NCBI GenBank assembly: GCA_046704725.1
Contig: JBJKRI010000006.1
Coordinates: 160,001-224,000, forward strand
Direction of reading: 5' to 3'
DNA length: 64,000 nucleotides
DNA from: Candidatus Woesearchaeota archaeon
Lineage (GTDB): Archaea; Nanobdellota; Nanobdellia; Woesearchaeales; SKIA01
Part shown: positions 7,781-23,148 of the stretch, piece after piece
Layout: the number at the start of each line of letters is the position of its first letter
Numbering within the stretch: the stretch's first letter is position 1
The notes under the pieces: model-generated
The model's input: the letters and a program-made list of their open reading frames with translations, nothing else
Told to the model about the DNA's origin: nothing
The model's database searches: none
Made by a program: the position numbers and the translations under genes

Positions 7781-8444
7781 TGCGAGCGATCTCCTTCACC
7801 ACGAGGACGATGTTAGCGGGCTCGTTCTTCTTCTCGCGGTCGGGGGATAGCCACGGACTGTCCGTCTCGGTCAATAACTGCTCCATAGGGACCTCCTCGA
7901 CGAGGCGCTGGAAGTGCGTCGCTCGAACGATGGTCGCGGGGATGCTGAAGTAACAACCCATCGCCGCCGCGCGCTTCGCGAGCTTCAGGGAGCCGCCGAA
8001 GCAGTGCATGTCCGCGACGACGCTCCGCCCCTCCAGGAGTTCGATGACATCCGCTTCCGCTTTCCTGCTGTGGATGAGGAGCGGTTTCTTGATCTCCTCG
8101 GCGAGGTCGAGGACCTTGGTGAAGACGTCACGCATCCTCTTTTTGTGCGTGTCGTCATAATGATAGTCGATGCCCACCTCGCCGATGGCGATCGGATCGC
8201 GCTGCTTGATGCCATCGAGGACCGCGTCGACCTCCTCATCGGAGAGCTCGACGGCATCGGTGGGGTACAACCCGAGAGCGGCCTCGACCTCGGGGAAGCG
8301 CTCGGCGAGAGCGAGCGCCTTCCTGTTGGAATCAGGCCCGGTGCCGTTGGTGAGGATGAGACCGACGCCAGACTCCTTGGCGCGCGAGACGATCGACGCG
8401 GGATCGTCGTAGGAGTCGAGATGGCAATGGATGTCGTACCGCAT
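7707..8444 (-). CDS. tatD: TatD family nuclease
   Basis: DIHCHLD, AIGEVGID, IHSR, MHCF, LLTETDSP and NEP motifs. Confidence 0.93.
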   Translation of the reverse strand: MRYDIHCHLDSYDDPASIVSRAKESGVGLILTNGTGPDSNRKALALAERFPEVEAALGLYPTDAVELSDEEVDAVLDGIKQRDPIAIGEVGIDYHYDDTHKKRMRDVFTKVLDLAEEIKKPLLIHSRKAEADVIELLEGRSVVADMHCFGGSLKLAKRAAAMGCYFSIPATIVRATHFQRLVEEVPMEQLLTETDSPWLSPDREKKNEPANIVLVVKEIARIKGLSEEECARLLWENASRFLSRS

Positions 8445-8480
8445 GAGAGCACGAACGAGAGGAACTATTAGAAGGAATCG

Positions 8481-8873
8481 CTAAAGCTTCTTGGCGGCGG
8501 CGTGGCGTCGGAAGGACTCGACGATGTCGATGACGTACTTGCCGTCCTCGAGCTTGTAGACCAGGGGCTGGCGGTCGGTGAAAAGGTTGACCAGGTCGAG
8601 CTCGTAGCGGCCGGGTCCGAGGATGTTGATCGACTCGATGTCCAAGACGACGGGCTTGTCCCGGTCGATCTCGTCGCCGATGAGGCTGAGCACGTCGCTC
8701 TCTATCTGGTTGCGCTGCTCCTCGGAGAGGGCCGCGCCACGCTTCTTGGCCTCCTCGACCTTGTTCTTCTTGACGTAGAAGAAGAACTTCCCGCCGCATT
8801 TGCTGCAGCCGTCGAGGATCTCCTTGCTACCGTCGTCGTAGAAGGTGTTGCACTGCACGCACTGGTGGGGCAT
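8481..8873 (-). CDS. oapC: Zn-ribbon protein, DUF2072 (OapC/ArvC-like)
   Basis: MPHQCVQC...ILDGCSKCGGKFFFY; IESINILGPGRYELDL. Confidence 0.85.
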   Translation of the reverse strand: MPHQCVQCNTFYDDGSKEILDGCSKCGGKFFFYVKKNKVEEAKKRGAALSEEQRNQIESDVLSLIGDEIDRDKPVVLDIESINILGPGRYELDLVNLFTDRQPLVYKLEDGKYVIDIVESFRRHAAAKKL

Positions 8874-9427: not shown

Positions 9428-9793
9428 TCACTGCGTGAGCAACTGGATCTTGTCTGGGTCCTGCTTGATCTCCTTGACCACAGACGCGGGGCCGATGATG
9501 GTCAGGCCGGCGCGGTTGCCTTGGAGCAGGTTCACGAGCCTGCTCTTGAGCTTGCCGAGGAACTCCTGGTTGCCCGCGTCAGGGTACAAGACAGCGAGCT
9601 CGATGCCCTTGAACTTCTTGTCGATGGACTCCATCGTCTTCTGGATGAGCGATCCCTCCTCCTCGGGGGTCAGGCGTCCTTCCATGAGCACGATCTTGTT
9701 CTGCTTGGCCACAGCCAATAGTTTCTTGATGCGCTCCTTGCTCGACAGGCCGTCGATCTCCTGATAGGGGATGAACTGGAGGGTGAGGCTCAT
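9428..9793 (-). CDS. oapB: DUF2073 protein (OapB/ArvB-like)
   Basis: MSLTLQFIPY...EGRLTPEEE..LIQKTMESID..FKGIE...GLTIIGPA; ATGA-coupled to the GTPase. Confidence 0.85.
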   Translation of the reverse strand: MSLTLQFIPYQEIDGLSSKERIKKLLAVAKQNKIVLMEGRLTPEEEGSLIQKTMESIDKKFKGIELAVLYPDAGNQEFLGKLKSRLVNLLQGNRAGLTIIGPASVVKEIKQDPDKIQLLTQ

Positions 9794-10419
9794 TTCGTCA
9801 CCTCGAACAACGACTCGTAGAAGTCCTCGATGTGCTTTCCGAACTTCGCGCTGATACCGACGATCTTGTACTGCGGGAACGCCGCCTGGATGCGTTTCAG
9901 ATCGGATTTCTTGAGGTCCGTCTTGTTCGCGACGAGCAGTACCGGGATGTCCCGTGCCTGCAGGTTGCCCACGATCGTGATGTTGACCTGACTGTAGGGG
10001 TCCTTGGTGGAGTCCAGGACGACGATGACCGCGTCCATGTCGTCGAGCCACTTGATGGCGTCGATGACGCCCTTGGTCGCTTCCTTGGCGCGGGACTTGG
10101 CGTCCTTCTCCTTCATGCCCGACTTGATGAACTCCTCGTAGTCGATCTTCGTGGCGATACCAGGAGTGTCGACGAGGTTGAAGGTGAGCTCACGGCCGTC
10201 CTTGCTCTTGATGGTCACACTCTCCTTGATCTGGACCTCGCGCGTCTCGTGCGCCATGCTCGAGACGGATCCCATCTCCTCGCCGAGCCAGTCCTCGCAG
10301 ATACGGTTCGCGAGCGTGGTCTTGCCGCCGTTCGGAGGACCGTACAGGCCGAGCTTGACCTGCTTCTTACCGCCGAACAGGTCGCGGAAAAGTGACTTCA
10401 GGAAGCTGGTCAGGCTCAT
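9790..10419 (-). CDS. oapA: Era-like small GTPase (OapA/ArvA)
   Basis: GLYGPPNGGKTTLANRI, HETR, DTPG, NKTD and ISA G-motifs; PYSQVN signature. Confidence 0.9.
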   Translation of the reverse strand: MSLTSFLKSLFRDLFGGKKQVKLGLYGPPNGGKTTLANRICEDWLGEEMGSVSSMAHETREVQIKESVTIKSKDGRELTFNLVDTPGIATKIDYEEFIKSGMKEKDAKSRAKEATKGVIDAIKWLDDMDAVIVVLDSTKDPYSQVNITIVGNLQARDIPVLLVANKTDLKKSDLKRIQAAFPQYKIVGISAKFGKHIEDFYESLFEVTK

Positions 10420-11033
10420 GGATAGAGATAAACCCGCTCCGTGCTCATCACGTCAGGCGTGTCGAACTCCGTCGTGGTCGGGGTGCCGATCTTCGGGATG
10501 AAGCTGATGCGCACATGCTGTCCTTCGCCGATCTTGTTGGTCACGTTGAAGTACAGCTTAATCACGTCGCCACGGACGAGGACGCCATTCTGGTGCGAGG
10601 GCCCCTCCTGCATATATTCCACCGTGAAGTTCCCAGTCTTGCCGGACACCTGTACACAATCCACCGCAGTGGTGTTCGTGCCACAGTATGCAGAGGCGTT
10701 AGTGAAGTTCCGGTAGTTGTACGTGATCGAGTCGGTGGATGTCGAGTAGGTCAATGTCACGTCAGCAAGCTTAATGGGGTCGCTGCCCGGAGCCAGCTTC
10801 ATGACTTCGGAGAAGGCATTGATTCCCGCAGTGTCTGAACCGTTGGTGGCGGAGACCTCAAGCACCAAGGCGTTGGTGCTGATTTGGCTCGTGGCCTGCG
10901 TGCCCGTGGAGAGGGCACGTTGCTGCAGGCTTCCCGCGGTCTGTATGAGCACTCCGGCCGCAACAGCCGCGACCAGCAATAGCGATATGAAGATTATCAG
11001 CGTCCCTACACCCATCTCTGCTTTTCGGTTCAT
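10416..11033 (-). CDS. flaB: Archaellin
   Basis: Class III signal peptide RKA|EMGVGTLIIFISLLLVAAVAAGVLIQT; LAPGSDPI; several NxS/T sequons. Confidence 0.92.
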   Translation of the reverse strand: MNRKAEMGVGTLIIFISLLLVAAVAAGVLIQTAGSLQQRALSTGTQATSQISTNALVLEVSATNGSDTAGINAFSEVMKLAPGSDPIKLADVTLTYSTSTDSITYNYRNFTNASAYCGTNTTAVDCVQVSGKTGNFTVEYMQEGPSHQNGVLVRGDVIKLYFNVTNKIGEGQHVRISFIPKIGTPTTTEFDTPDVMSTERVYLYP

Positions 11034-11111
11034 GATGTCTCTGGGTCTCCACCGTCGCAGTAGTATATAAAGCTTTTCGTGTTTTCGGAAAGAGGAAAAG
11101 GAAAAGAGAGT

Positions 11112-11750
11112 TCAGGGATACAAGTAGACCCGCTCGGTACTGATGACATCCGGCGTGTTGAACTCCACGAGGGTCGGGGTACCGATCTTCGGGATGAAGT
11201 TTATCCGGACGGCCTCGTCCTGGGCGATGGAGAACGGCGCGTCGAAGTATACCCGGATGACATCGCCACGCTGGAGGTTCCCATCGAGGTGATTGGTCCC
11301 ATTGATCAGATAGTCCACCGTGAAGTTGCCAGTGTACGAACCGGAGCCCGCGGAGGCGGTCCCCGCACACTGGCTCGCAGTGAGGTTCGCGGTGGCGTTC
11401 GAGCAATAGACCGAAGTATTGGTCGGGGCCCGATAAATCAGTGTCGTGGTCGAGTTCACCGTGTTGAACGTCAAGGTGACCTCGCTGAGCTTGATCGGAT
11501 CGGAGCCGGGACTCAACTTCATCTGCATCGAGAAGTTCTCCACCGTCTGGTCCGTGCCATCCACTGCCGAGACCTCGATGACCTTCGCGTTGGTGGATAT
11601 CTCACCCTTCGATTGCTGGCCCGTCGATAGGGCCTTCTGCTGGAGGCTGCCAGTGGTCTGCAGGAGAACACCTGCAGCGACCGCGGCGACCAACAGCATA
11701 GCAATAAAGATAATGAGGGTGCCGACACCCATCTCCGCACGTCTACTCAT
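11112..11750 (-). CDS. flaB: Archaellin
   Basis: RRA|EMGVGTLIIFIAMLLVAAVAAGVLLQT; LSPGSDPI. Confidence 0.92.
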   Translation of the reverse strand: MSRRAEMGVGTLIIFIAMLLVAAVAAGVLLQTTGSLQQKALSTGQQSKGEISTNAKVIEVSAVDGTDQTVENFSMQMKLSPGSDPIKLSEVTLTFNTVNSTTTLIYRAPTNTSVYCSNATANLTASQCAGTASAGSGSYTGNFTVDYLINGTNHLDGNLQRGDVIRVYFDAPFSIAQDEAVRINFIPKIGTPTLVEFNTPDVISTERVYLYP

Positions 11751-12325
11751 GGATACAGGTAGACCCGCTCCGTGCTGATGACATCCGGCGTGTCGAATAT
11801 CACCCGCGTGGACGTGCCGATCTTCGGGATGAAGTTCAGACGCACATAGGCCCCTTCACCGATGGAACTCGGCGCGAGGAACTGCATCTCGACCACATCG
11901 CCGCGCACCATGACACCGTTCTGGTGGTTCGCGCCCTGCTGCAGGTACGTGACCACGAACGTCCCGTTCTGGTCCGTCGCGTTCACCGAAGGCGTGCTCG
12001 ACGCATTGTCATAGATGTACGTCGTCGTCGTGTTGACCGTGTTCAGCGTCAGCGTGGAATCGCCCAGCTTGATTGAATCGCTTCCCGGTGCGAGCTTCAT
12101 GATCATCGAGAAGTTCTCGATGTTCTGGTTCGTCCCGTCGACCGCACTGACCTCAAGCACGACAGCGTTCGTGCTGATCTGGCTCGTGGCCTGAGAACCG
12201 GTGGACAACGCTCGTTGCTGGAGGCTCCCAGCAGTCTGTATAAGCACTCCTGCAGCCACCGCGGCGACGAGCAGGAGAGATATGAAGATTATCAGGGTTC
12301 CGACGCCCATTTCTCCTTTTCTCAT
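11747..12325 (-). CDS. flaB: Archaellin (true start 12325; the longer track ORF is a shadow of uvrC)
   Basis: MRKG|EMGVGTLIIFISLLLVAAVAAGV; same C-terminus TPDVISTERVYLYP as the neighbouring paralog. Confidence 0.92.
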   Translation of the reverse strand: MRKGEMGVGTLIIFISLLLVAAVAAGVLIQTAGSLQQRALSTGSQATSQISTNAVVLEVSAVDGTNQNIENFSMIMKLAPGSDSIKLGDSTLTLNTVNTTTTYIYDNASSTPSVNATDQNGTFVVTYLQQGANHQNGVMVRGDVVEMQFLAPSSIGEGAYVRLNFIPKIGTSTRVIFDTPDVISTERVYLYP

Positions 12326-15339: not shown

Positions 15340-16710
15340 CTACGACGAGGAAAAATCCTCCGCAGTCCAACGCGCGTAGAACGCGTCCACGGCCCGTTCC
15401 ATATAGCGCAGTCTCGCCGGACTGCCGCGTTCCGGACTCATGAAACGTTGCAGGGAGTCTTTCGGAACAGCATATATCTCCGGGCGTGAGGATCCCACCA
15501 CCTTCACGCCGACCTCTCTCAAGTACTCCAGCACGTGATGCGTATTCCGACGGACGCCCTCGAATCCATGCATGTCCTTGCTCGTGAACAGCATGAACGG
15601 TTTTCCGGAGATACTGTTGAACAGGCTTCCACGGATCTCCTCACGCATCCGCCCGTATATCGATGATTCATTGTCTAGCGCGAGCGGCAGCTCTTCCTCT
15701 GTCAGGTACAGCACGCCTTGCGGTAGAGCACCCCCAGTAACGAACCCTCCGCGCAAGCGACCTTCTCGTATTCTTGTCTCAAGCGTCGGTTTGCGGAGGG
15801 CTCCCGGAAGGGACCCGAAGTGCTTCGTGGTGACAAGAAGGACTCCTGGCGAGTACCAGCCCGGCAGGCCGTCGAGCGTTGACAGGCCTCCTTCGTACGC
15901 TCCCACAGAAGTCTCTACAGGATGGAGCTTGGGCTGGTGGCCGTTCATGGAGATGTCATCGACATCGATATGCCCTTCCCATCGGTTCACTATGCTGCGC
16001 ATCACGACGGCGTGGAGCTCCCGCACGTTGCCCGGCCACGCCTCATTTTTGAGTCGCTCCACCGCCGCTTCGGTGAAGCCGAGGGTCTTCGCCTCGAAAT
16101 GGCTGCGCGTGCGTGCATGGAGATATGCCACGATCTCCGGAATATCATCCGGTCGCTCGCGCAATGGCGGGACGATGATCTCGTACTGCGCGATGCGATG
16201 GAAGAGGTCCCGACGGAATCCGTCCTCGAACGCGTCGCGCAGCGATGCGTTGGTCGCGGAGAGCACGCGGGTGACGACCTTCTGCGGCAAGGTATCTCCG
16301 ACCGGAATGATAAGGTCCTCCTCAAGGAAGCGCAGGAGCTTTGGTTGGAGCTGGGGCGGCATGTCGCCTATCTCATCGAGGAACAACGTCCCTCCTTCAG
16401 CTGCCTTCACGAAGCCCTTGCTGTCCGAGCTCGCCCCGGTGAACGCGCCCTTGCGGTGCCCGAACAGCGTCGACTCCGCAAGATCCAGAGGGAGGGCCGA
16501 GCAATTCACGGCGACGTACGGATTCATGGCGTTGGGACCGAGATGATGGAGGGCACGGGCGACGAGCTCCTTGCCGACGCCAGTCTCTCCCTGGATGAGC
16601 ACACGGATGTCGAGCTGTGCCAGGCGGCGTATCTGTTCATAGAGCGTCTGCATCGGTGCGGAAGAGCCGATAATCCGAAAATCGGTTCCGGGAATCTGCA
16701 AGGACCGCAT
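15340..16710 (-). CDS. Sigma-54-interaction (bEBP-type) AAA+ ATPase with an unrecognised C-terminal region
   Basis: GETGVGKE, VAVNCSAL, ESTLFGHRKGAFTGA, GGTLFLDEIGDM, QPKLLRFLE, SATN, FRRDLFHRI, PPLRER and WPGNVREL motifs. Confidence 0.9.
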   Translation of the reverse strand: MRSLQIPGTDFRIIGSSAPMQTLYEQIRRLAQLDIRVLIQGETGVGKELVARALHHLGPNAMNPYVAVNCSALPLDLAESTLFGHRKGAFTGASSDSKGFVKAAEGGTLFLDEIGDMPPQLQPKLLRFLEEDLIIPVGDTLPQKVVTRVLSATNASLRDAFEDGFRRDLFHRIAQYEIIVPPLRERPDDIPEIVAYLHARTRSHFEAKTLGFTEAAVERLKNEAWPGNVRELHAVVMRSIVNRWEGHIDVDDISMNGHQPKLHPVETSVGAYEGGLSTLDGLPGWYSPGVLLVTTKHFGSLPGALRKPTLETRIREGRLRGGFVTGGALPQGVLYLTEEELPLALDNESSIYGRMREEIRGSLFNSISGKPFMLFTSKDMHGFEGVRRNTHHVLEYLREVGVKVVGSSRPEIYAVPKDSLQRFMSPERGSPARLRYMERAVDAFYARWTAEDFSSS

Positions 16711-16809
16711 GATTCCACGAGTCAATAGTGACGTATTCAAAAAGCTTTTCTTCGAAAAAGCAATGGCGTCCGGCAGCGAAGACGCATAACGCCGGCTTCT
16801 CGCAGTGTC

Positions 16810-17151: not shown

Positions 17152-17243
17152 GTCCAGGCGAGCGGATACTTAAACGTTGGGCGGACCGGAACACGACAGG
17201 CTGCTCGCACAAACATCTTAAGCACGGGGTCGCTCCCAGCCTC

Positions 17244-17385
17244 ATGCCCAGAAACACGGTCTTCTCGCTCAAAGCGCCACAAGCCGGCGGGCGGGCAGCC
17301 CGAAGCCATCAAGGAGCTGCTGGACGGCTACAAGAAGCAGCAGAAGCAGACCCTGCTCGGCGTGACCGGATCAGGCAAGACATTC
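17244..17385 (+). pseudogene. uvrB: Frameshifted 5' fragment of uvrB (left island boundary)
   Basis: 17262-17385 aligns to 21226-21351 with a 2-nt deletion and about 10 mostly synonymous substitutions; encodes the region up to LLGVTGSGKTF. Confidence 0.9.
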
Positions 17386-17467
17386 TTCTTGACGAAGTCA
17401 AGACTATCTGTCCGAAGGACGCGGGCACTTCCGTTTTTATGCTAAAATAGCTCGGATTCCAAAATTG

Positions 17468-17524
17468 AACTAACAGACGGGTTGAGCGCGTTGTGAAACA
17501 ATACGTGCTAGTCATTTGTTAATG
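17468..17524. repeat. attC-like site 1
   Basis: AACTAAC-AGACGGGTTGAGCGCG-TTGTGAAACAA-TACGTGCTAGTCATTT-GTTAATG; imperfect palindrome. Confidence 0.82.
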
Positions 17525-17617
17525 GCTTGTAAGTGATTTTTAGTGCAAGATACTCAATGAAAGCGCAAGAATTATATAATAGAAAAGGATACATTTCTGT
17601 ATCAATAGGTGATGTAA

Positions 17618-17893
17618 ATGTCTGCTATTCTAGATGCGGATCCGAAGCACTGGCCCACGCTAAACACAGTGATCATGGTAGAGCAAACAATAAACAAGCT
17701 CGACGATAGTATCGTCACTGTTCCTCAAATCAAACGCGCGTTGCCACGAAAAGTCAACCATAATACCCTCAAACTCATCCTCAAGTACTTAGAGGAAAGT
17801 AACAAGATCGCCGTAAGCATAGATGGAATTACCTGGATCCACAATCAGAATCAAAAGCTACAACGAGCGATTCAATCAGGTTTAGAGCTGTGA
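17618..17893 (+). CDS. Putative antitoxin / winged-helix protein (cassette 1)
   Basis: 91 aa, wHTH-like (QIKRALPRKVNHNTLKLILKYLEESNKI); AGGTGA SD; GTGA overlap with the toxin-like gene. Confidence 0.6.
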   Translation: MSAILDADPKHWPTLNTVIMVEQTINKLDDSIVTVPQIKRALPRKVNHNTLKLILKYLEESNKIAVSIDGITWIHNQNQKLQRAIQSGLEL

Positions 17894-18243
17894 AACGAGC
17901 ACGCATTATTTTATCTCCAGAAGCAGAAGAGGTCTACAACTATCTGAACAAAGAGGCAAGCAAGTCAAAAACAGAGCGCGCAATACTGAATGCCTTCAAC
18001 AAGAAAAAAGATCTGATCAAGAACAACATCCACTATGGTGAACCGATCGCAAAAAGCAAAATTCCTGAGGCGTACAAGAAATCGTATGGAGTGACGAATT
18101 TATTCTGGGTAGACTTGCCGGATGCGTGGAGGATGCTGTATACGCTGACAAACGATGAATCTCAGATTGAGATTATCGCATTTGTGCTGGATATCTTCGA
18201 TCACAAAGCATACGAGAAAAAAATGGGATACAAGAAGAGCTAA
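17890..18243 (+). CDS. Putative RelE/ParE-fold toxin (cassette 1)
   Basis: Basic 117 aa; IILSPEAEEVY...NLFWVDLPDAWRMLYT...VLDIFDHKAY follows the RelE-like pattern. Confidence 0.62.
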   Translation: MKRARIILSPEAEEVYNYLNKEASKSKTERAILNAFNKKKDLIKNNIHYGEPIAKSKIPEAYKKSYGVTNLFWVDLPDAWRMLYTLTNDESQIEIIAFVLDIFDHKAYEKKMGYKKS

Positions 18244-18282
18244 TCATTGCCAACCTTGCAACTTCTGAAAATCACGTATTGC

Positions 18283-18338
18283 CACTAACATACGGGTTGA
18301 GCGCGTCCTGATAGGATGCGTGCTAGTCGTTGTTATGG
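18283..18338. repeat. attC-like site 2
   Basis: CACTAAC-ATACGGGTTGAGCGCG-TCCTGATAGGA-TGCGTGCTAGTCGTT-GTTATGG; 18273-18335 is identical to 19623-19685. Confidence 0.88.
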
Positions 18339-18417
18339 GTTGCTGCCGATATGCCAGGCGCAGTCTTTGAATTTCGCGAATTGATACTATTATAAAGGAG
18401 GAACATACTGTGTTAAC

Positions 18418-18864
18418 ATGGATTTTGCGTACGAAGGAGATTACACCTACGGTCACACTCGGGGCACCACGAAAGGTTATGTTCGGCTCGGAGAAGCGGG
18501 AAAGCTTGTTGGCATTGTACGAGATGACGGAGGGCAACGAAAGTTCCTCGTCGGCCATCACACAGACAACAGAGTAGAATTCTTCAAAATTCCCGAACTG
18601 CCACTCAGCGTTCGCTCTTTAGGATACAGCGCAAAAGGAACTCCAGACTCCAGCTACGATGCGCAGTGGGGAGTCATCCCCGTATTTTCAGACGTAGCAG
18701 TTTCATGGAGCAATGTACTCTTTGATCTTCGAGATGTGGAATCAGACCGAGACCTTGATTTCTTGGATGCAGTGGACTTGGATGACATTGTTCGCGCGTC
18801 CGAACAAATAGCTGAAGTCAATCCATCCACAGATACTGCATCTTTCCGACTTAATCCACTATAA
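18418..18864 (+). CDS. Hypothetical protein (cassette 2)
   Basis: Single ORF between sites 2 and 3; TTATAAAG begins 28 nt before the ATG. Confidence 0.75.
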   Translation: MDFAYEGDYTYGHTRGTTKGYVRLGEAGKLVGIVRDDGGQRKFLVGHHTDNRVEFFKIPELPLSVRSLGYSAKGTPDSSYDAQWGVIPVFSDVAVSWSNVLFDLRDVESDRDLDFLDAVDLDDIVRASEQIAEVNPSTDTASFRLNPL

Positions 18865-18937
18865 ACCCCATTTTCAATCGTGTTCGTCATGGAGTCAAAT
18901 GAAGTGCCTGAACTCCTGAAAGCATATCTGCATTTTC

Positions 18938-18992
18938 CCATAACATACGGGTTGAGCGAGTCGCTTGCGATGCGTGCTAGTCATTGTTAATG
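18938..18992. repeat. attC-like site 3
   Basis: CCATAAC-ATACGGGTTGAGCGAG-TCGCTTGCGA-TGCGTGCTAGTCATT-GTTAATG. Confidence 0.85.
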
Positions 18993-19104
18993 GCTGTCGT
19001 ATTGAACGTGCGCGGAGGTGCGGAGAGGCCCAAGAACACAATGTTCCCATTAAATAGTAGTTAGTTACCGGTATGTTTATAAGTACTGTTTTCTTTCCTC
19101 CTGT

Positions 19105-19596
19105 ATGTCGCTATTAGAGGAGTTAGTAGCTGAATACGCCCTTGATATCGATGGTGTTATTCTAGAGGATGTGGTACAGAAGCGATACTCCACACTCATC
19201 CAGAACGGATCGATAGACGCCATGACCTCGCTACGCGAAGCAACAGGAATCAACCCTGCAGAGGAGGTGGTACAGAACGGATACTCCACACTCATCCAGA
19301 ACGGATGGATAGACGACATGACCTCGCTACGCGAAGCAACAGGAATCAACCCTGCAGAGGAGGTGGTACAGAACAGATACTCCACACTCATCCAGAACGG
19401 ATGGATAGACGACATGACCTCGCTACGCGAAGCAACAGGAATCAACCCCAAGGTCCCAGAGGATGTGATACAGAACAGATACTCCACACTCATCCAGAAC
19501 GGATGGATAGACGACATGACCTCGCTACGCGAAGCAACAGGAATCATGCCGAATGAAGAGAATGCAAGAGCGTACGTCGCGCATCTCATGGAATAA
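19105..19596 (+). CDS. Helical tandem-repeat protein (cassette 3)
   Basis: Four ~32-aa repeats EEVVQNRYSTLIQNGWIDDMTSLREATGINP; TTTATAAG begins 29 nt before the ATG. Confidence 0.8.
   Translation: MSLLEELVAEYALDIDGVILEDVVQKRYSTLIQNGSIDAMTSLREATGINPAEEVVQNGYSTLIQNGWIDDMTSLREATGINPAEEVVQNRYSTLIQNGWIDDMTSLREATGINPKVPEDVIQNRYSTLIQNGWIDDMTSLREATGIMPNEENARAYVAHLME
19165..19545 (+). repeat. Coding tandem repeat, 96-bp unit x4 (last unit offset by +6 bp)
   Basis: Near-identical units start at 19165, 19261, 19357 and ~19459. Confidence 0.92.
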
Positions 19597-19632
19597 CTGT
19601 TACCCGCAAAAACGCACGAACACACGTATTGC

Positions 19633-19688
19633 CACTAACATACGGGTTGAGCGCGTCCTGATAGGATGCGTGCTAGTCGTTGTTAGTT
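19633..19688. repeat. attC-like site 4
   Basis: Same body as site 2; ends GTTAGTT. Confidence 0.88.
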
Positions 19689-19765
19689 GGTGTTGCTCTC
19701 GATAATTCTTCAATTTTTTCGTGTGAATCAATTTGATTTATATACTGTCTTTGCGTTGAGCCACT

Positions 19766-20203
19766 ATGATTATCCGTACTGCCACAATTGATGATTGTGT
19801 TGCTTGCGAATCCCTTAGTAAGATTCCTGAATTGTTAACTCCAGAAGGTCAGCACGTTGTCAAGGAGTACTTCGAAGTGCTAGTGGATGATGATGAATTG
19901 TTTATTGTAGCGGAAGAGCAACAGCAGATTGTCGGATATGTTGTTGGCGAGCCCATGAAAGCTAATCAAGCATTCATCAGTCTGTTGGTAGTTGATCCAC
20001 ACTTTCGGCGAAGAGGTATTGCGAAACAACTACTTGATGAATTTAGAACCCGCTGCGATACTAAAGGACTGAGATACATTTCATTATTCGCTCCTTCGTT
20101 CAATGAAGCAACGCTTGAATTCTACACAAAAGCAGGTTTCACTCGCGGAGAATCCTACATCTTGTTCAGCGAAAGCAGAATGCCCGATACCGAACAAAGG
20201 TGA
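19766..20203 (+). CDS. GNAT acetyltransferase (cassette 4)
   Basis: LVVDPHFRRRGIAKQLL acetyl-CoA motif; N..TLEFYTKAGF; TTTATATA begins 29 nt before the ATG. Confidence 0.9.
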   Translation: MIIRTATIDDCVACESLSKIPELLTPEGQHVVKEYFEVLVDDDELFIVAEEQQQIVGYVVGEPMKANQAFISLLVVDPHFRRRGIAKQLLDEFRTRCDTKGLRYISLFAPSFNEATLEFYTKAGFTRGESYILFSESRMPDTEQR

Positions 20204-20237
20204 AGGTCTTTGAGAGGTTTTCTGAAAGCACAATGAC

Positions 20238-20296
20238 AACTAACATACGTTATGGCGGACGCTTTGCGCCCGCGAACCATGGATGTTAGGCCTAAC
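20238..20296. repeat. Divergent integrase-proximal recombination site (attI-like or variant attC)
   Basis: AACTAACATACG start shared with the other sites, different body, ends in the perfect palindrome GTTAGGCCTAAC (20285-20296). Confidence 0.6.
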
Positions 20297-20355
20297 CGGA
20301 GACATTCCGGTTTTATCCACAATGAACTATTGAAGTTTGTTTCGAGCGGTGGAGC

Positions 20356-21195
20356 ATGGTTACAGAGGACGTCGAGCGCCGTCTGCTTAAGCAACTGGAG
20401 GATATCTGCGCTCTCAAGGGCCTAAGCGGCCAGACTGTCCGTGCGTACTCCTCAGTCCTGGCTCAGTATTTTGCGTATCTTCGACACAAGGAGACAAAAC
20501 TCGGCCATGAAAGTGTGAAAGACTACTTGCTAACGCGTAAGGTCAACCCGAATTCGTTGCGCCTGCACCGCGCGGCGCTGCAGTTCCTCTTCACCCACAT
20601 CCTGGACAGCCCGTTCTCCTTCAATCAGATACCGATCAAGAAAAGGCCAAAACAGCTCCCCAAGGCGCTCAGCAGGCAAGCGGTCAAGACGATGATCGAC
20701 TCGACAGAGAACCCCAAGCACAAGCTCATCGTGCAACTGCTCTATTCCTGCGGCCTCCGACTGTCGGAACTGGTCAATCTCCGACGGGACGACATCGATT
20801 TCGACCGCGGACTGGTCCATGTCAGGAAGGGCAAAGGCAGCAAGGATCGCTACACCACGATCTCGCAGTCCCTGCAGTCAGCTCTCCTCCGATACTACGC
20901 CACGAACACCTTCGCCACCCCCTATATCCTCGAAGGAAGGAATGGCAAGTACTCGAAGAAATCGGTGCAGAAGGTCGTCGAGCAGGCAGGCAAGCGCGCG
21001 GCCGTTAAAGCCACGCCCCACACGCTGCGCCACTCGTTCGCCACACACCTCTTGGAGGCGGGCGTCTCTTTACGCCATATCCAGCAGCTCCTCGGCCACG
21101 CGAGCCTTGACACGACCCAGGTCTACACCCACATCGCGAACAGCGACATCGCCGCGATCCCAAATCCATTGGACCGTCTCGAACGCAACGCCTAA
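20356..21195 (+). CDS. Tyrosine recombinase, integron-integrase-like
   Basis: Catalytic set GLRLSE, KGKGSKD, HTLRHSFATHLL, LLGH, TQVY; SAM-like N-terminus (LSGQTVRAY); no IntI-specific insertion visible. Confidence 0.92.
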   Translation: MVTEDVERRLLKQLEDICALKGLSGQTVRAYSSVLAQYFAYLRHKETKLGHESVKDYLLTRKVNPNSLRLHRAALQFLFTHILDSPFSFNQIPIKKRPKQLPKALSRQAVKTMIDSTENPKHKLIVQLLYSCGLRLSELVNLRRDDIDFDRGLVHVRKGKGSKDRYTTISQSLQSALLRYYATNTFATPYILEGRNGKYSKKSVQKVVEQAGKRAAVKATPHTLRHSFATHLLEAGVSLRHIQQLLGHASLDTTQVYTHIANSDIAAIPNPLDRLERNA

Positions 21196-21219
21196 AACCC
21201 GCGCCCCATTCTCACCCAC

Positions 21220-23148
21220 ATGCCATTCTCGCTCAAAGCGCCGTACAAACCGGCGGGCGGACAGCCCGAAGCCATCAAGGAGCTGCTGGAGGGCTACAAG
21301 AAGCAGGAGAAGCAGACCCTGCTCGGGGTGACCGGCAGCGGCAAGACCTTCCTGATGGCGAACGTCATCCAGGCGCTGGGCAAGAAGACATTGGTGCTCG
21401 CGCACAACAAGACGCTCGCCGCGCAACTGTGGAGCGAACTGCGCGAACTGTTCCCCGAAAACGCCGTGGAGTACTTCGTGAGCTACTACGACTATTACCA
21501 GCCGGAATCCTACCTGCCGCAGACGGACACCTATATCGAGAAGGACAGCAGCAAGAACGACGTGATCGACGCGTTGCGCTTGCGCGCGACGGCCAACCTC
21601 TTGTCGCGCGACGACGTCATCGTCGTGGCGTCCGTGTCGTGCATCTACGGCTTGGGGGACCCGGAGGACTGGGAGGAACTGAGCCTGCATATCGAGAGAG
21701 GAGAGAGCATGAATAGGCAAGGGCTCATCAAGGGCCTTGTGGACATGCAGTACGAGCGAAACGACACGCAGCCCCAGCGCGGACAGTTCCGCGTGACAGG
21801 CGACACGGTCGAGGTCGTGCCGGGATACCAGGACGAGCACGTGCGCATCGAATTGTTCGGCGACGAGGTCGAACGCATCAGCATCAGGCACCACGTCACG
21901 GGAGAGGAGATCGAGCGCGCCGAGCGCATCGTCTTGTTCCCGGCAAAGCATTTCGTGACGACAGAGGAGAAGCAAGAGCGCGCCATCGCGGGCATCAAGG
22001 AGGAGCTGGAGGGGTACTTGCCCACGCTCGGACCGCTCGAGCACGAGCGCCTGGAGCGGCGCACGAGGTTCGACCTGGAGATGATCGAGGAACTGGGGTA
22101 CTGCAACGGCATCGAGAACTACAGCAGGCACTTCTCCGGGCGCAAGGAAGGGCAGCCGCCGCACACCCTCTTGGACTTCTTCGGGAAGGACTGGCTGCTC
22201 ATCGTGGACGAGAGCCACCAGACATTGCCGCAGGTGCACGCCATGGCGCACGGCGACCGCAGCCGCAAGGAGCCGCTCGTGGAGTACGGCTTCCGGCTGC
22301 CCAGCGCTTTCGACAACCGGCCGTTGACCTTCGAGGAGTTCGAGGGCCGCATGCCGACAACAATGTTCGTCTCCGCGACGCCGGGCGAGTACGAGACCAA
22401 GACGAGCGGCAACCTCGTGGAATGCGTCATCCGGCCGACAGGGCTCTTGGACCCCCACATCACCGTCAAGCCCACGAAAGGGCAGATAGACGACCTCATC
22501 AGCGAGGTGCACAAGACCGTCGAGGACGGGAACAAGGTCTTGGTGACCACGCTCACCAAGAAGATGTCGGAGGATCTGACGAACTACCTCGCGCGGCGCG
22601 ACATCCGGGTGCGCTACCTGCACAGCGAGATCGAGACGCTCGAACGCACGGAGCTCATCCGGCAATTGCGGGCGGACGAGATCGACTGCATCGTCGGCAT
22701 CAACCTGTTACGGGAAGGGCTCGACATCCCCGAAGTGTCGTTGGTGGCAATCCTGGATGCGGACAAGGAAGGCTTCCTGCGCAACGAACGGTCTCTCTTG
22801 CAGACCATCGGCCGGGCCTCGCGCAACAAGGACGGGCGCGTCATCATGTACGCGGACAAGACGACGGACTCGATGCGGCGCGCCATCACCATAACGCACG
22901 AGCGCCGTGCATTGCAGGAGAAGTACAACACAGAGCACGGCATCACGCCCAAGACCATCGTCAAGGCGGTGCCCGAGCAGCGCGTGGCCATGAAGGACAC
23001 CAAGCACATCCCAGACGCTGATGTGGAGAAGACGATCGAATCCTTGCGCGAGGAGATGGCCGCGGCGGCCGAGCAGTTGAACTTCGAGCTCGCCATCGAG
23101 ATACGCGACCGCATCAAGGAACTGGAGAAACGGCTGGAGAAGCGATAG
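21220..23148 (+). CDS. uvrB: Excinuclease ABC subunit B
   Basis: GVTGSGKT, YFVSYYDYYQPESY, DESH, SATPG, GINLLREGLD; C-terminal UVR domain. Confidence 0.98.
   Translation: MPFSLKAPYKPAGGQPEAIKELLEGYKKQEKQTLLGVTGSGKTFLMANVIQALGKKTLVLAHNKTLAAQLWSELRELFPENAVEYFVSYYDYYQPESYLPQTDTYIEKDSSKNDVIDALRLRATANLLSRDDVIVVASVSCIYGLGDPEDWEELSLHIERGESMNRQGLIKGLVDMQYERNDTQPQRGQFRVTGDTVEVVPGYQDEHVRIELFGDEVERISIRHHVTGEEIERAERIVLFPAKHFVTTEEKQERAIAGIKEELEGYLPTLGPLEHERLERRTRFDLEMIEELGYCNGIENYSRHFSGRKEGQPPHTLLDFFGKDWLLIVDESHQTLPQVHAMAHGDRSRKEPLVEYGFRLPSAFDNRPLTFEEFEGRMPTTMFVSATPGEYETKTSGNLVECVIRPTGLLDPHITVKPTKGQIDDLISEVHKTVEDGNKVLVTTLTKKMSEDLTNYLARRDIRVRYLHSEIETLERTELIRQLRADEIDCIVGINLLREGLDIPEVSLVAILDADKEGFLRNERSLLQTIGRASRNKDGRVIMYADKTTDSMRRAITITHERRALQEKYNTEHGITPKTIVKAVPEQRVAMKDTKHIPDADVEKTIESLREEMAAAAEQLNFELAIEIRDRIKELEKRLEKR

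Follow-up and report, generated by a model that had tools for sequence, protein, structure and literature searches.

The window analysed here is a stretch of 64,000 nucleotides from a Candidatus Woesearchaeota archaeon (assembly GCA_046704725.1, contig JBJKRI010000006.1, positions 160,001 to 224,000), and the system in question is an array of small gene cassettes next to a tyrosine recombinase gene. Five imperfect palindromes (S1-S5), of about 49-51 nt from TAAC to GTTA, bound four low-GC cassettes just upstream of the recombinase; array and recombinase together form a block between a decayed duplicate of the 5' end of uvrB and the intact uvrB, the recombinase gene ending 8 nt short of the right copy of this duplication (Table 1). 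A preliminary description, made from the sequence without database searches, had read this region as an archaeal integron-like array served by the adjacent recombinase. The host genome comprises 1.18 Mb in 8 contigs and is 99.7% complete, and matches to the archaeal small- and large-subunit rRNA models identify it as that of an archaeon, as had been described. Comparisons within the genus and the order were made on 41 genomes of the order (the host and 40 relatives). Open reading frames are abbreviated as ORFs.

Table 1. Features of the array and its borders (positions in the window)
Feature	Position	Strand	Details
Decayed duplicate of the uvrB 5' end, left copy	17239-17412	+	174 bp; tblastn matches UvrB residues 9-46
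Site S1	17471-17521	+	TAAC...GTTA hairpin site, short family
Cassette 1	17519-18332	+	overlapping ORFs 17618-17893 (91 aa) and 17890-18243 (117 aa)
Site S2	18286-18335	+	identical to S4
Cassette 2	18333-18986	+	ORF 18418-18864, 148 aa, no family
Site S3	18941-18989	+	short family
Cassette 3	18987-19682	+	ORF 19105-19596, 163 aa
Site S4	19636-19685	+	short family
Cassette 4	19683-20285	+	ORF 19766-20203, GNAT acetyltransferase, Pfam PF00583 E = 2e-17
Site S5	20241-20288	+	different hairpin, same TAACATACG...GTTA frame; nearest the integrase
Integrase-proximal module	20285-20315	+	GTTAGGCCTAAC palindrome, then hairpin CCGGAGACATTCCGG and TTTT
Xer-like tyrosine recombinase	20356-21195	+	279 aa, without the IntI insertion; PF00589 match
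Right copy of the duplicated segment and intact uvrB	21203-23148	+	duplicated segment 21203-21375, running into intact uvrB 21220-23148

Hairpin sites and cassettes

All five palindromes of the preliminary description are present where it had placed them, and their TAAC-to-GTTA cores could be located. The arms GGGTTGAGCG and CGTGCTAGTC are indeed common to S1-S4 and enclose loops that differ and are self-complementary (TTGT/ACAA, TCC/GGA, TCGC/GCGA), while the core frame of S5 encloses a GC-rich hairpin unrelated to those of the other four. In the alignment of S1-S4 a single hairpin pairs 95% of the cells, with three pairs changed on both sides, and in a control where the partner is slid by 1-3 columns the pairing falls to 26-50%. 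Folded as single strands, S2, S4 and S5 form their hairpins at z = -2.2 to -4.7 (S5 at z = -2.2 on both strands). Three invariant G-T pairs (columns 15-47, 21-41 and 25-37 of the S1-S4 alignment, A5) give the ORF-sense strand of the sites a folding advantage of 2-5 kcal/mol over the bottom strand, where C-A mismatches would take their place; the sites of the relatives discussed below also have an invariant G-T pair (columns 27-96 of alignment A2).

This short family is private to the genome, in keeping with the "own short site family" proposed at the outset. Nowhere else in the genome do both arms occur together, and one stray copy of the left arm lies on contig C3; a scan of 401 genomes of the order found the two-arm pattern in one, which is this genome. 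Five pattern matches in a metagenome scan were set aside as chance, since they lie in high-GC contexts and lack TAAC/GTTA flanks. A covariance model of S1-S4 (R2), the kind of scan that the preliminary description had called for, recovered its own four training sites from the 41 genomes and neither S5 nor any scattered copy. A dispersed repeat of the repetitive extragenic palindrome or miniature inverted-repeat transposable element type is ruled out, the arms being found together at this locus only. A single 182-nt contig of depth 2.8 from the mangrove metagenome run X1 carries the start of cassette 3 (window about 18941-19120); the loop of its site reads CGTTTACGA, against CGCTTGCGA in S3, a C-G pair being replaced by T-A on both sides of the stem in this one low-depth contig.

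The outer bases of the sites are complementary across each cassette and not within a site. This match, which had been pointed out in the preliminary description, holds in all four cassettes: the ends of cassettes 1 and 3 read GTTAATGGC...GCCACTAAC with one mismatch, those of cassette 2 read GTTATGGG...CCCATAAC, with a complementarity that runs to 24 nt at 79%, and those of cassette 4 read GTTAGTTG...CAACTAAC. To measure it, the 7 nt after GTTA were compared with the 7 nt before the next TAAC in five arrays, namely that of the window and those of four relatives. Adjacent sites, that is, the two ends of one cassette, pair at a mean of 4.07 of 7 positions (15 pairs); the corresponding means are 1.85 of 7 within one site (20 sites) and 2.0 of 7 for non-adjacent pairs (49 pairs). 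After removal of one pair that had been mis-extracted, the remaining 14 adjacent pairs exceed the others with a Mann-Whitney p = 1.2e-6, a value that is a guide only, the sites being related to one another. Since the variable outer bases stay complementary, the ends of a cassette must pair within a strand, as in a folded strand of the circular form.

The pairing of the ends bears directly on an alternative in which the same enzyme acts on the same array, the sites being recombined as double-stranded Xer/dif-like cores with no folded strands. Its model would be the pdif (XerC/XerD-site) modules of Acinetobacter plasmids, which have 28-bp duplex sites in alternating orientation; these too are small gene modules bounded by Xer-type sites, but the sites here are direct, form hairpins and show covariation in their stems. 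An Xer-like enzyme devoid of the I2 helix would suit a duplex reaction, as would half-sites of the core-like form AAC-N6-GTT, and XerA alone is described as recombining duplex dif in vitro in the excerpt of Cortez et al. 2010 (PMC2958812) used here. Nevertheless, the outer five bases vary between cassettes and yet are complementary between the two ends of one cassette, and the stems carry compensatory changes; a duplex reaction needs neither stem nor end pairing, and we hold it to be improbable.

The complementarity of the ends does not by itself tell on which side a site is cut, but the S2/S4 pair does. Positions 18273-18335 and 19623-19685 are identical over 63 nt, a block that begins with 13 nt to the left of the site and runs from TAAC through the complete hairpin to GTTA; the identity stops exactly at GTTA, the next base already being different. 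Site and first bases (GTTAATGGCT) are common to cassettes 1 and 3, whose genes are unrelated. Because this single block of identity ends at GTTA, the crossover is placed at G/TT (between the G and the first T), as in attC, which backs the GTT-side exchange of the earlier cassette reading.

It could also be supposed that the locus is an integrated island with no mobile cassettes; the hairpins would then serve as terminators or in regulation, and gene conversion would keep them alike. A hairpin does follow each ORF, the sense strand is the one that folds best, and the short family is confined to one locus. However, no T-run follows S1-S4, TAAC/GTTA cores with cassette-specific complementary flanks are unexpected of terminators, the identity block ends exactly at GTTA, and related arrays travel with one clade of recombinases, as described in the next section; this explanation is thereby left very improbable.

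As had been described, each interval holds one gene or a two-gene module: cassette 1 has its two ORFs and cassettes 2-4 have one each, every one of them on the + strand. The proteins of cassette 1 have no match in Pfam or NCBIfam, and the nearest ESM Atlas clusters of its 117-aa protein are "putative RelE toxin" and plasmid stabilisation proteins of Archaea (score 0.98); on this lead, which comes from protein-language features only, the cassette probably encodes a toxin-antitoxin pair of the RelE/ParE type. The protein of cassette 3 consists mostly of four 32-aa tandem repeats, encoded by 96-nt units that are 91-96% identical (19163-19553). Toxin-antitoxin pairs and acetyltransferases are listed among the commonest functions of archaeal cassettes in the parts of Ghaly et al. 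2022 (PMC9668308) drawn on here.

The GC content is 0.41-0.52 across the array and 0.60-0.65 in its flanks. At third codon positions (GC3) the five cassette ORFs range over 0.39-0.59 (0.51-0.53 for the ORFs of cassette 1, 0.39 for the GNAT gene of cassette 4), the integrase has 0.76 and host genes have 0.79-0.90. On the basis of GC3 the cassettes are foreign and horizontally acquired. TATA-like boxes stand before the first ATGs of cassettes 1-4, at -45, -27, -29 and -29/-27, respectively, a placement that would fit leaderless archaeal transcripts.

The recombinase and the arrays of its relatives

The recombinase is a complete tyrosine recombinase and looks functional, the catalytic residues R, K, H, R, H and Y being invariant across an alignment of 20 sequences. 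It scores 219.2 bits with the NCBIfam model XerA_Arch (cut-off 220), and its best match in the PDB is the XerA of P. abyssi (4a8e; 171 bits, in one stretch). With TIGR02249, the model of integron integrases, it reaches 190 bits in two stretches against a cut-off of 265; the housekeeping XerA scores 213, the array-linked proteins 186-197, and verified IntI proteins, which served as positive controls because the built-in controls of the search held no integron, 394-490 in one stretch. No sequence at the TIGR02249 cut-off was found in this genome or in the 40 relatives. When the protein is aligned with VchIntIA (2a3v), residues 21-177 and 203-275 correspond to 16-177 and 246-320; between these stretches there are 25 residues here and 68 in IntI, so that about 43 amino acids of IntI have no counterpart. 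Judged by its sequence, the protein is neither an IntI nor a decayed IntI. Of the two features by which IntegronFinder recognises an integron integrase, PF00589 and the additional domain of IntI, only the former is present, and that part of the preliminary reading has to be given up.

It is not the housekeeping XerA either. The genome has a separate copy (C4:46134-46904), which groups with those of the genus and of the same family and fills that role, and the copy of the window falls in a clade of array-linked integrases. Homologues of the recombinase occur in 38/41 genomes of the order, and its closest named relative, from a Candidatus Woesearchaeota metagenome-assembled genome (MAG), is 50% identical. 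In a tree of 44 rows, nine of ten array-linked integrases form one clade (support 94/92), which also holds five genes at contig ends, one with a weak site only and one with 971 nt of upstream sequence; a clade of 14 rows without sites is taken as the housekeeping XerA because it has about one member per genome and unites the genus and family of the window. A tree of 70 rows, extended by eight verified IntI and 16 bacterial homologues and leaving out a long branch and a row interrupted by a stop codon, keeps the array clade (support 98) apart from the IntI clade (100), its deep order being without resolution. Four further loci (L067, L071, L073, L074) form a small second group, which may be another array-linked lineage.

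Members of the array-linked clade are distributed patchily over the genomes, often at contig ends. Three of them, from three families (L036, L051 and L053, in genomes G014, G019 and G039), are nearly identical, with branch lengths of 0.07-0.13; they share the proximal site and differ in the sequence between site and gene. This near-identity suggests a recent transfer between families.

Beside closer homologues of the integrase, the relatives have a longer family of sites, of 86-146 nt, with the form TAACAT..GG-ATTAAGAGAAGTT-hairpin-AATTTGG-hairpin-CTCTTAATCC.TGTTA. The consensus fold of this family, from which a covariance model (R1) was built, comprises 24 pairs, 14 of them with compensatory changes. 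The left arm TAACATACGGGTT of the window is also found in some long-family sites, and ATTG stands 3-4 nt left of TAAC in almost all sites, those of the window included; because of these common traits, the short family of the window is taken as a local offshoot of the order-wide family.

The position of these arrays relative to the integrase is regular. A search with R1 over 50 sources (503 kb) gave 20 matches at E < 0.01, of which 11 were training sites and nine were new, and all 20 lie upstream of the integrase homologue and on its strand; at the three loci with at least 7 kb on both sides, the sites upstream of the integrase are 12/12. In nine or more further families of the order, members of the array clade lie directly downstream of comparable arrays, on the same strand, and the cassette-end signature is present in the relatives' arrays too. 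The link between array and adjacent recombinase that the preliminary description had drawn is thus borne out. Around 80 other Xer/IntI genes, mostly bacterial Xer and IntI, R1 gave 2 matches in 885 kb, L102 alone having an E below 0.1 and the weak L115 having E = 0.5; in 475 kb around 40 of 80 viral loci it gave none. Genome-wide counts, made on the part of the first-look candidates that was scored, place 15/21 R1 matches of five genomes in the array next to the integrase; in all 41 genomes there are 38 matches in 15 genomes, about 19 directly upstream of the integrase and 6 in arrays cut by contig ends. The genome-wide association of array and integrase is strong, not complete.

Some observations on single loci may be added. 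In one relative (L028, 9040-9618) a 300-bp segment is duplicated in tandem with 96% identity, each copy having one site and no long ORF, which looks like a duplicated empty cassette. On a 4.27-Mb contig of a Spirochaetota MAG (L102), a recombinase of 275 aa (8001-8825, +; 236.5 bits) passes the archaeal XerA model, and a long-family site (10768-10869, -; R1 E = 4e-5) lies 1.9 kb downstream of it on the opposite strand, which may be a cross-domain occurrence. Recombinase homologues on viral contigs are at most 40% identical. Homologues from the candidate phyla radiation (L088, L090, L101, L106 and L109; 36-39% identical, at contig starts) were considered as arrays and rejected, as their repeated TATACGAA motifs look dif-like.

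A site-like module is found about 60-130 nt before the integrase start in the array clade, and S5 holds that position in the window. Upstream of most integrases of the clade the order is a short site, a TTTCGG/CCGAAA-like motif and a box resembling a transcription factor B recognition element and TATA box. The conserved short site has the form ATTG-N3-4-TAAC-A-NN-TATTAA..hairpin..TTAATA, with or without GTTA; the hairpin and T-run that follow S5 are also kept upstream of the integrase of a congener. At L060 a full site ends in GTTAAAATG, so that the integrase there would begin at the crossover. The integrase-proximal site may be a counterpart of attI.

The locus in the genus and the uvrB duplication

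The left copy of the uvrB duplicate has lost its start codon and has a 2-nt deletion. The two copies are 88% identical and each is about 67% identical to the uvrB of any congener; since they resemble each other more than they resemble any congener's gene, the duplication arose within this lineage. Searches for a comparable long flanking duplication at three relatives' loci, and for a second uvrB 5' fragment in the congener G001, found none.

The congeners differ at this position. In G001, at a contig end, an integrase 60% identical to that of the window precedes a BRO-N-like gene, then uvrB and uvrA; the BRO-N/antirepressor-like gene encodes 282 aa (L026, 14184-15032, -) and its end overlaps the uvrB start. 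A different contig of G001 has the genes syntenic with window 6.2-14.15 kb and, after them, an array of long-type sites. None of four cassette ORFs of the window has a tblastn match in the integrase-uvrB locus of G001, and beyond the shared flank the array contig has no tblastx match of at least 60 aa to the window. In G003 and G004 the same left flank lies about 450 bp from uvrB, with neither array nor integrase. By these comparisons the position is a variable hot spot whose content is not fixed, and the cassette content turns over. Fixed gene content and order in relatives, which the preliminary description had named as an outcome that would tell against gene capture, was thus looked for in congeners and not observed. 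The proposal that window 14.2-21.2 kb is a single insertion relative to G003 and G004 was softened, as the stretch includes an inositol-monophosphatase gene with a host-like GC content.

The earlier wording "active or recently active" has indirect signs in its favour, which are suggestive of it: the 63-nt identical pair of sites, the foreign GC content and the different cassettes of the congener. Read joints from 17319/17385 to about 21394 were considered as products of excision and rejected, since they derive from the uvrB of other organisms, with a likeness of 85%.

Between the shared left flank and the uvrB remnant lies a gene for a sigma-54-type AAA+ ATPase in an archaeon (15340-16740, -; Pfam Sigma54_activat E = 6e-59), which was not found in five close relatives; the PADLOC model RtcR_PspF2 (CARF_AAA_HTH) matches its AAA part.

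Relation to integrons and other Xer systems

Several traits are those of integrons. The locus is a tandem array of short, promiscuous and mostly co-oriented genes, with a likely toxin-antitoxin pair, a GNAT gene and unknowns, which are common cassette classes; it has imperfect palindromes with AAC/GTT cores, a G/TT crossover, outer bases that match across cassettes and an adjacent tyrosine recombinase. The palindromes have the integron arrangement (R''..AAC and R' GTT.. cores, exchange at G/TT, and R' outer bases that belong to the next cassette). The differences are as follows: (i) the recombinase is without the IntI domain and no closer to IntI than the housekeeping XerA is; (ii) instead of a divergent upstream integrase with attI and the cassette promoter Pc, the integrase follows the array and reads in its direction, a geometry repeated at the relatives' loci; (iii) the cassettes have their own TATA-like boxes (-27 to -45) and need no Pc; (iv) the stretch from R to L box is paired with a bulge of 1-3 nt, whereas canonical attC has an unpaired central spacer; and (v) there is no clear attI. 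A verified canonical IntI from a Planctomycetia MAG (L162, 8001-8960) has five attC matches downstream on its strand (9491-12200), which is not the usual divergent layout.

A covariance model of canonical attC (R3) was trained on 14 sites beside seven verified IntI genes, and is small and GC-rich. It recovered held-out bacterial attCs, nine of them at E <= 1 (five at L162, three at L142, one at L163). Its outcome at the archaeal arrays, given below, is suggestive of a distinct family of sites, and these sites may still belong to attC in the broad sense.

The main competing explanation is that of a cluster of attC sites lacking an integron integrase (CALIN), in which ordinary attC cassettes are moved in trans by the IntI of other cells, and the Xer-like gene integrates the island at uvrB or is unrelated. 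The definition of a CALIN in the sections of Ghaly et al. 2022 (PMC9668308) available to us asks for two or more attC sites spaced by less than 4 kb and for the absence of an IntI from their vicinity; the spacing of 603-814 bp and the lack of IntI agree with this, leaving apart the attC status by a curated model. The same sections report 75 archaeal MAGs with only six IntI, all with the additional domain, most arrays being CALINs, and the recombination of archaeal attCs by the bacterial IntI1; in them there is no mention of neighbouring Xer-like genes. We found no paper that links attC arrays to Xer-like recombinases in archaea, although the supplementary CALIN lists of that study may include such arrays. 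The integrase, moreover, abuts a 174-bp duplication of the target gene, as island integrases often do, and some R1 sites are away from any integrase. Against this stand the absence of a canonical IntI at the cut-off from a nearly complete genome and its 40 relatives, the constant placement of this one integrase clade, in at least nine families, with respect to array end and strand, together with a conserved proximal module, the lack of comparable long flanking duplications at the three relatives' loci, and the sites' having gone unscored by the small and GC-biased R3. We therefore consider a CALIN served in trans unlikely, if the least unlikely of the alternatives.

Among Xer systems, XerA acting at dif (Cortez et al. 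2010, PMC2958812; 4a8e) resembles the window integrase in length and catalytic residues. The array-linked sites are hairpins of 50-150 nt in arrays, as opposed to one 28-bp dif, and here there is a separate housekeeping XerA, the array clade being patchy and, in one case, nearly identical across three families. Integrative mobile elements exploiting Xer recombination (IMEX), such as the CTX phage, enter dif by way of XerCD, whose substrate is a folded single-stranded attP. They offer a precedent for an Xer without the I2 helix working on a folded single-strand hairpin, and for tandem arrays at one site; unlike the present case, however, these phages or islands depend at dif on the housekeeping Xer of their host, and here a dedicated paralogue lies beside small promoter-bearing cassettes.

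The integron-like reading is thus supported as regards the anatomy and the recombinase link; it fails in the identity of the integrase as IntI, and the layout is different. We regard it as reasonably probable that the locus is an integron-type cassette array in which an Xer-like integrase lacking I2 most likely moves the cassettes as circles through sites folded as single strands. The array would consist of four horizontally acquired cassettes, each ending in an attC-like hairpin site and each with its own archaeal promoter, which the adjacent recombinase would excise and insert as circles. On a site folded as a single strand, the enzyme would bind a duplex-like stem made of an R box (TAAC/GTTA and five cassette-specific pairs) and an L box; between the two boxes would lie a short segment of pairs, bulged by 1-3 nt on the left arm. 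One strand would be exchanged at G/TT of the right-hand core, and replication would then finish the reaction, just as it completes single-strand exchange for IntI and for XerCD on CTX phage DNA.

Several points weigh against this interpretation. The I2 helix, the additional domain of IntI, is absent from the window integrase, and it is reported as necessary for attC recombination in extracts of Messier and Roy 2001 and of Escudero 2020. The better folding of the sense strand sits oddly with the bottom-strand mechanism to which the crossover side points, and at S1 and S3 the hairpin is not reached by minimum free energy alone. The small, GC-biased R3 found nothing at four archaeal array loci, and its sole match in the window, S5 at E = 5.2, is no better than noise. 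Neither the 401 genomes, the metagenome scan nor the R2 search yielded the short site family at a second locus, and so it was never seen flanking other genes; of the 38 R1 matches, 13 are elsewhere than at integrase-linked or contig-cut arrays, for example four dispersed on G026:C4 with no integrase nearby. The duplication of uvrB allows a simpler task for the enzyme, namely integration of the whole island. Finally, no excised circles, empty site, alternative junctions or reordering were seen in reads, the only run with the locus (X1) having a depth of about 3.

A broader proposition, that a Xer-derived lineage without I2 runs its own cassette system on folded hairpins across Woesearchaeota-like archaea, with the integrase at the tail of the array and self-promoting cassettes, seems to us evenly poised. 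In integron biology the additional domain of IntI is regarded as the innovation that enabled recombination of single-stranded attC hairpins, and surveys define integrons by this domain. If the proposition is true, the domain would not be the sole route to cassette capture: the archaeal system would be either an independent invention or a surviving stage that precedes IntI, and the origin of integrons from Xer recombinases would become testable with living examples. Many archaeal CALINs would then be complete systems whose integrase is invisible to current tools, and archaeal, perhaps also bacterial, CALINs would have to be read differently. A gene-capture platform would thereby be identified in very small genomes of the DPANN type, where the gain of genes is poorly understood.

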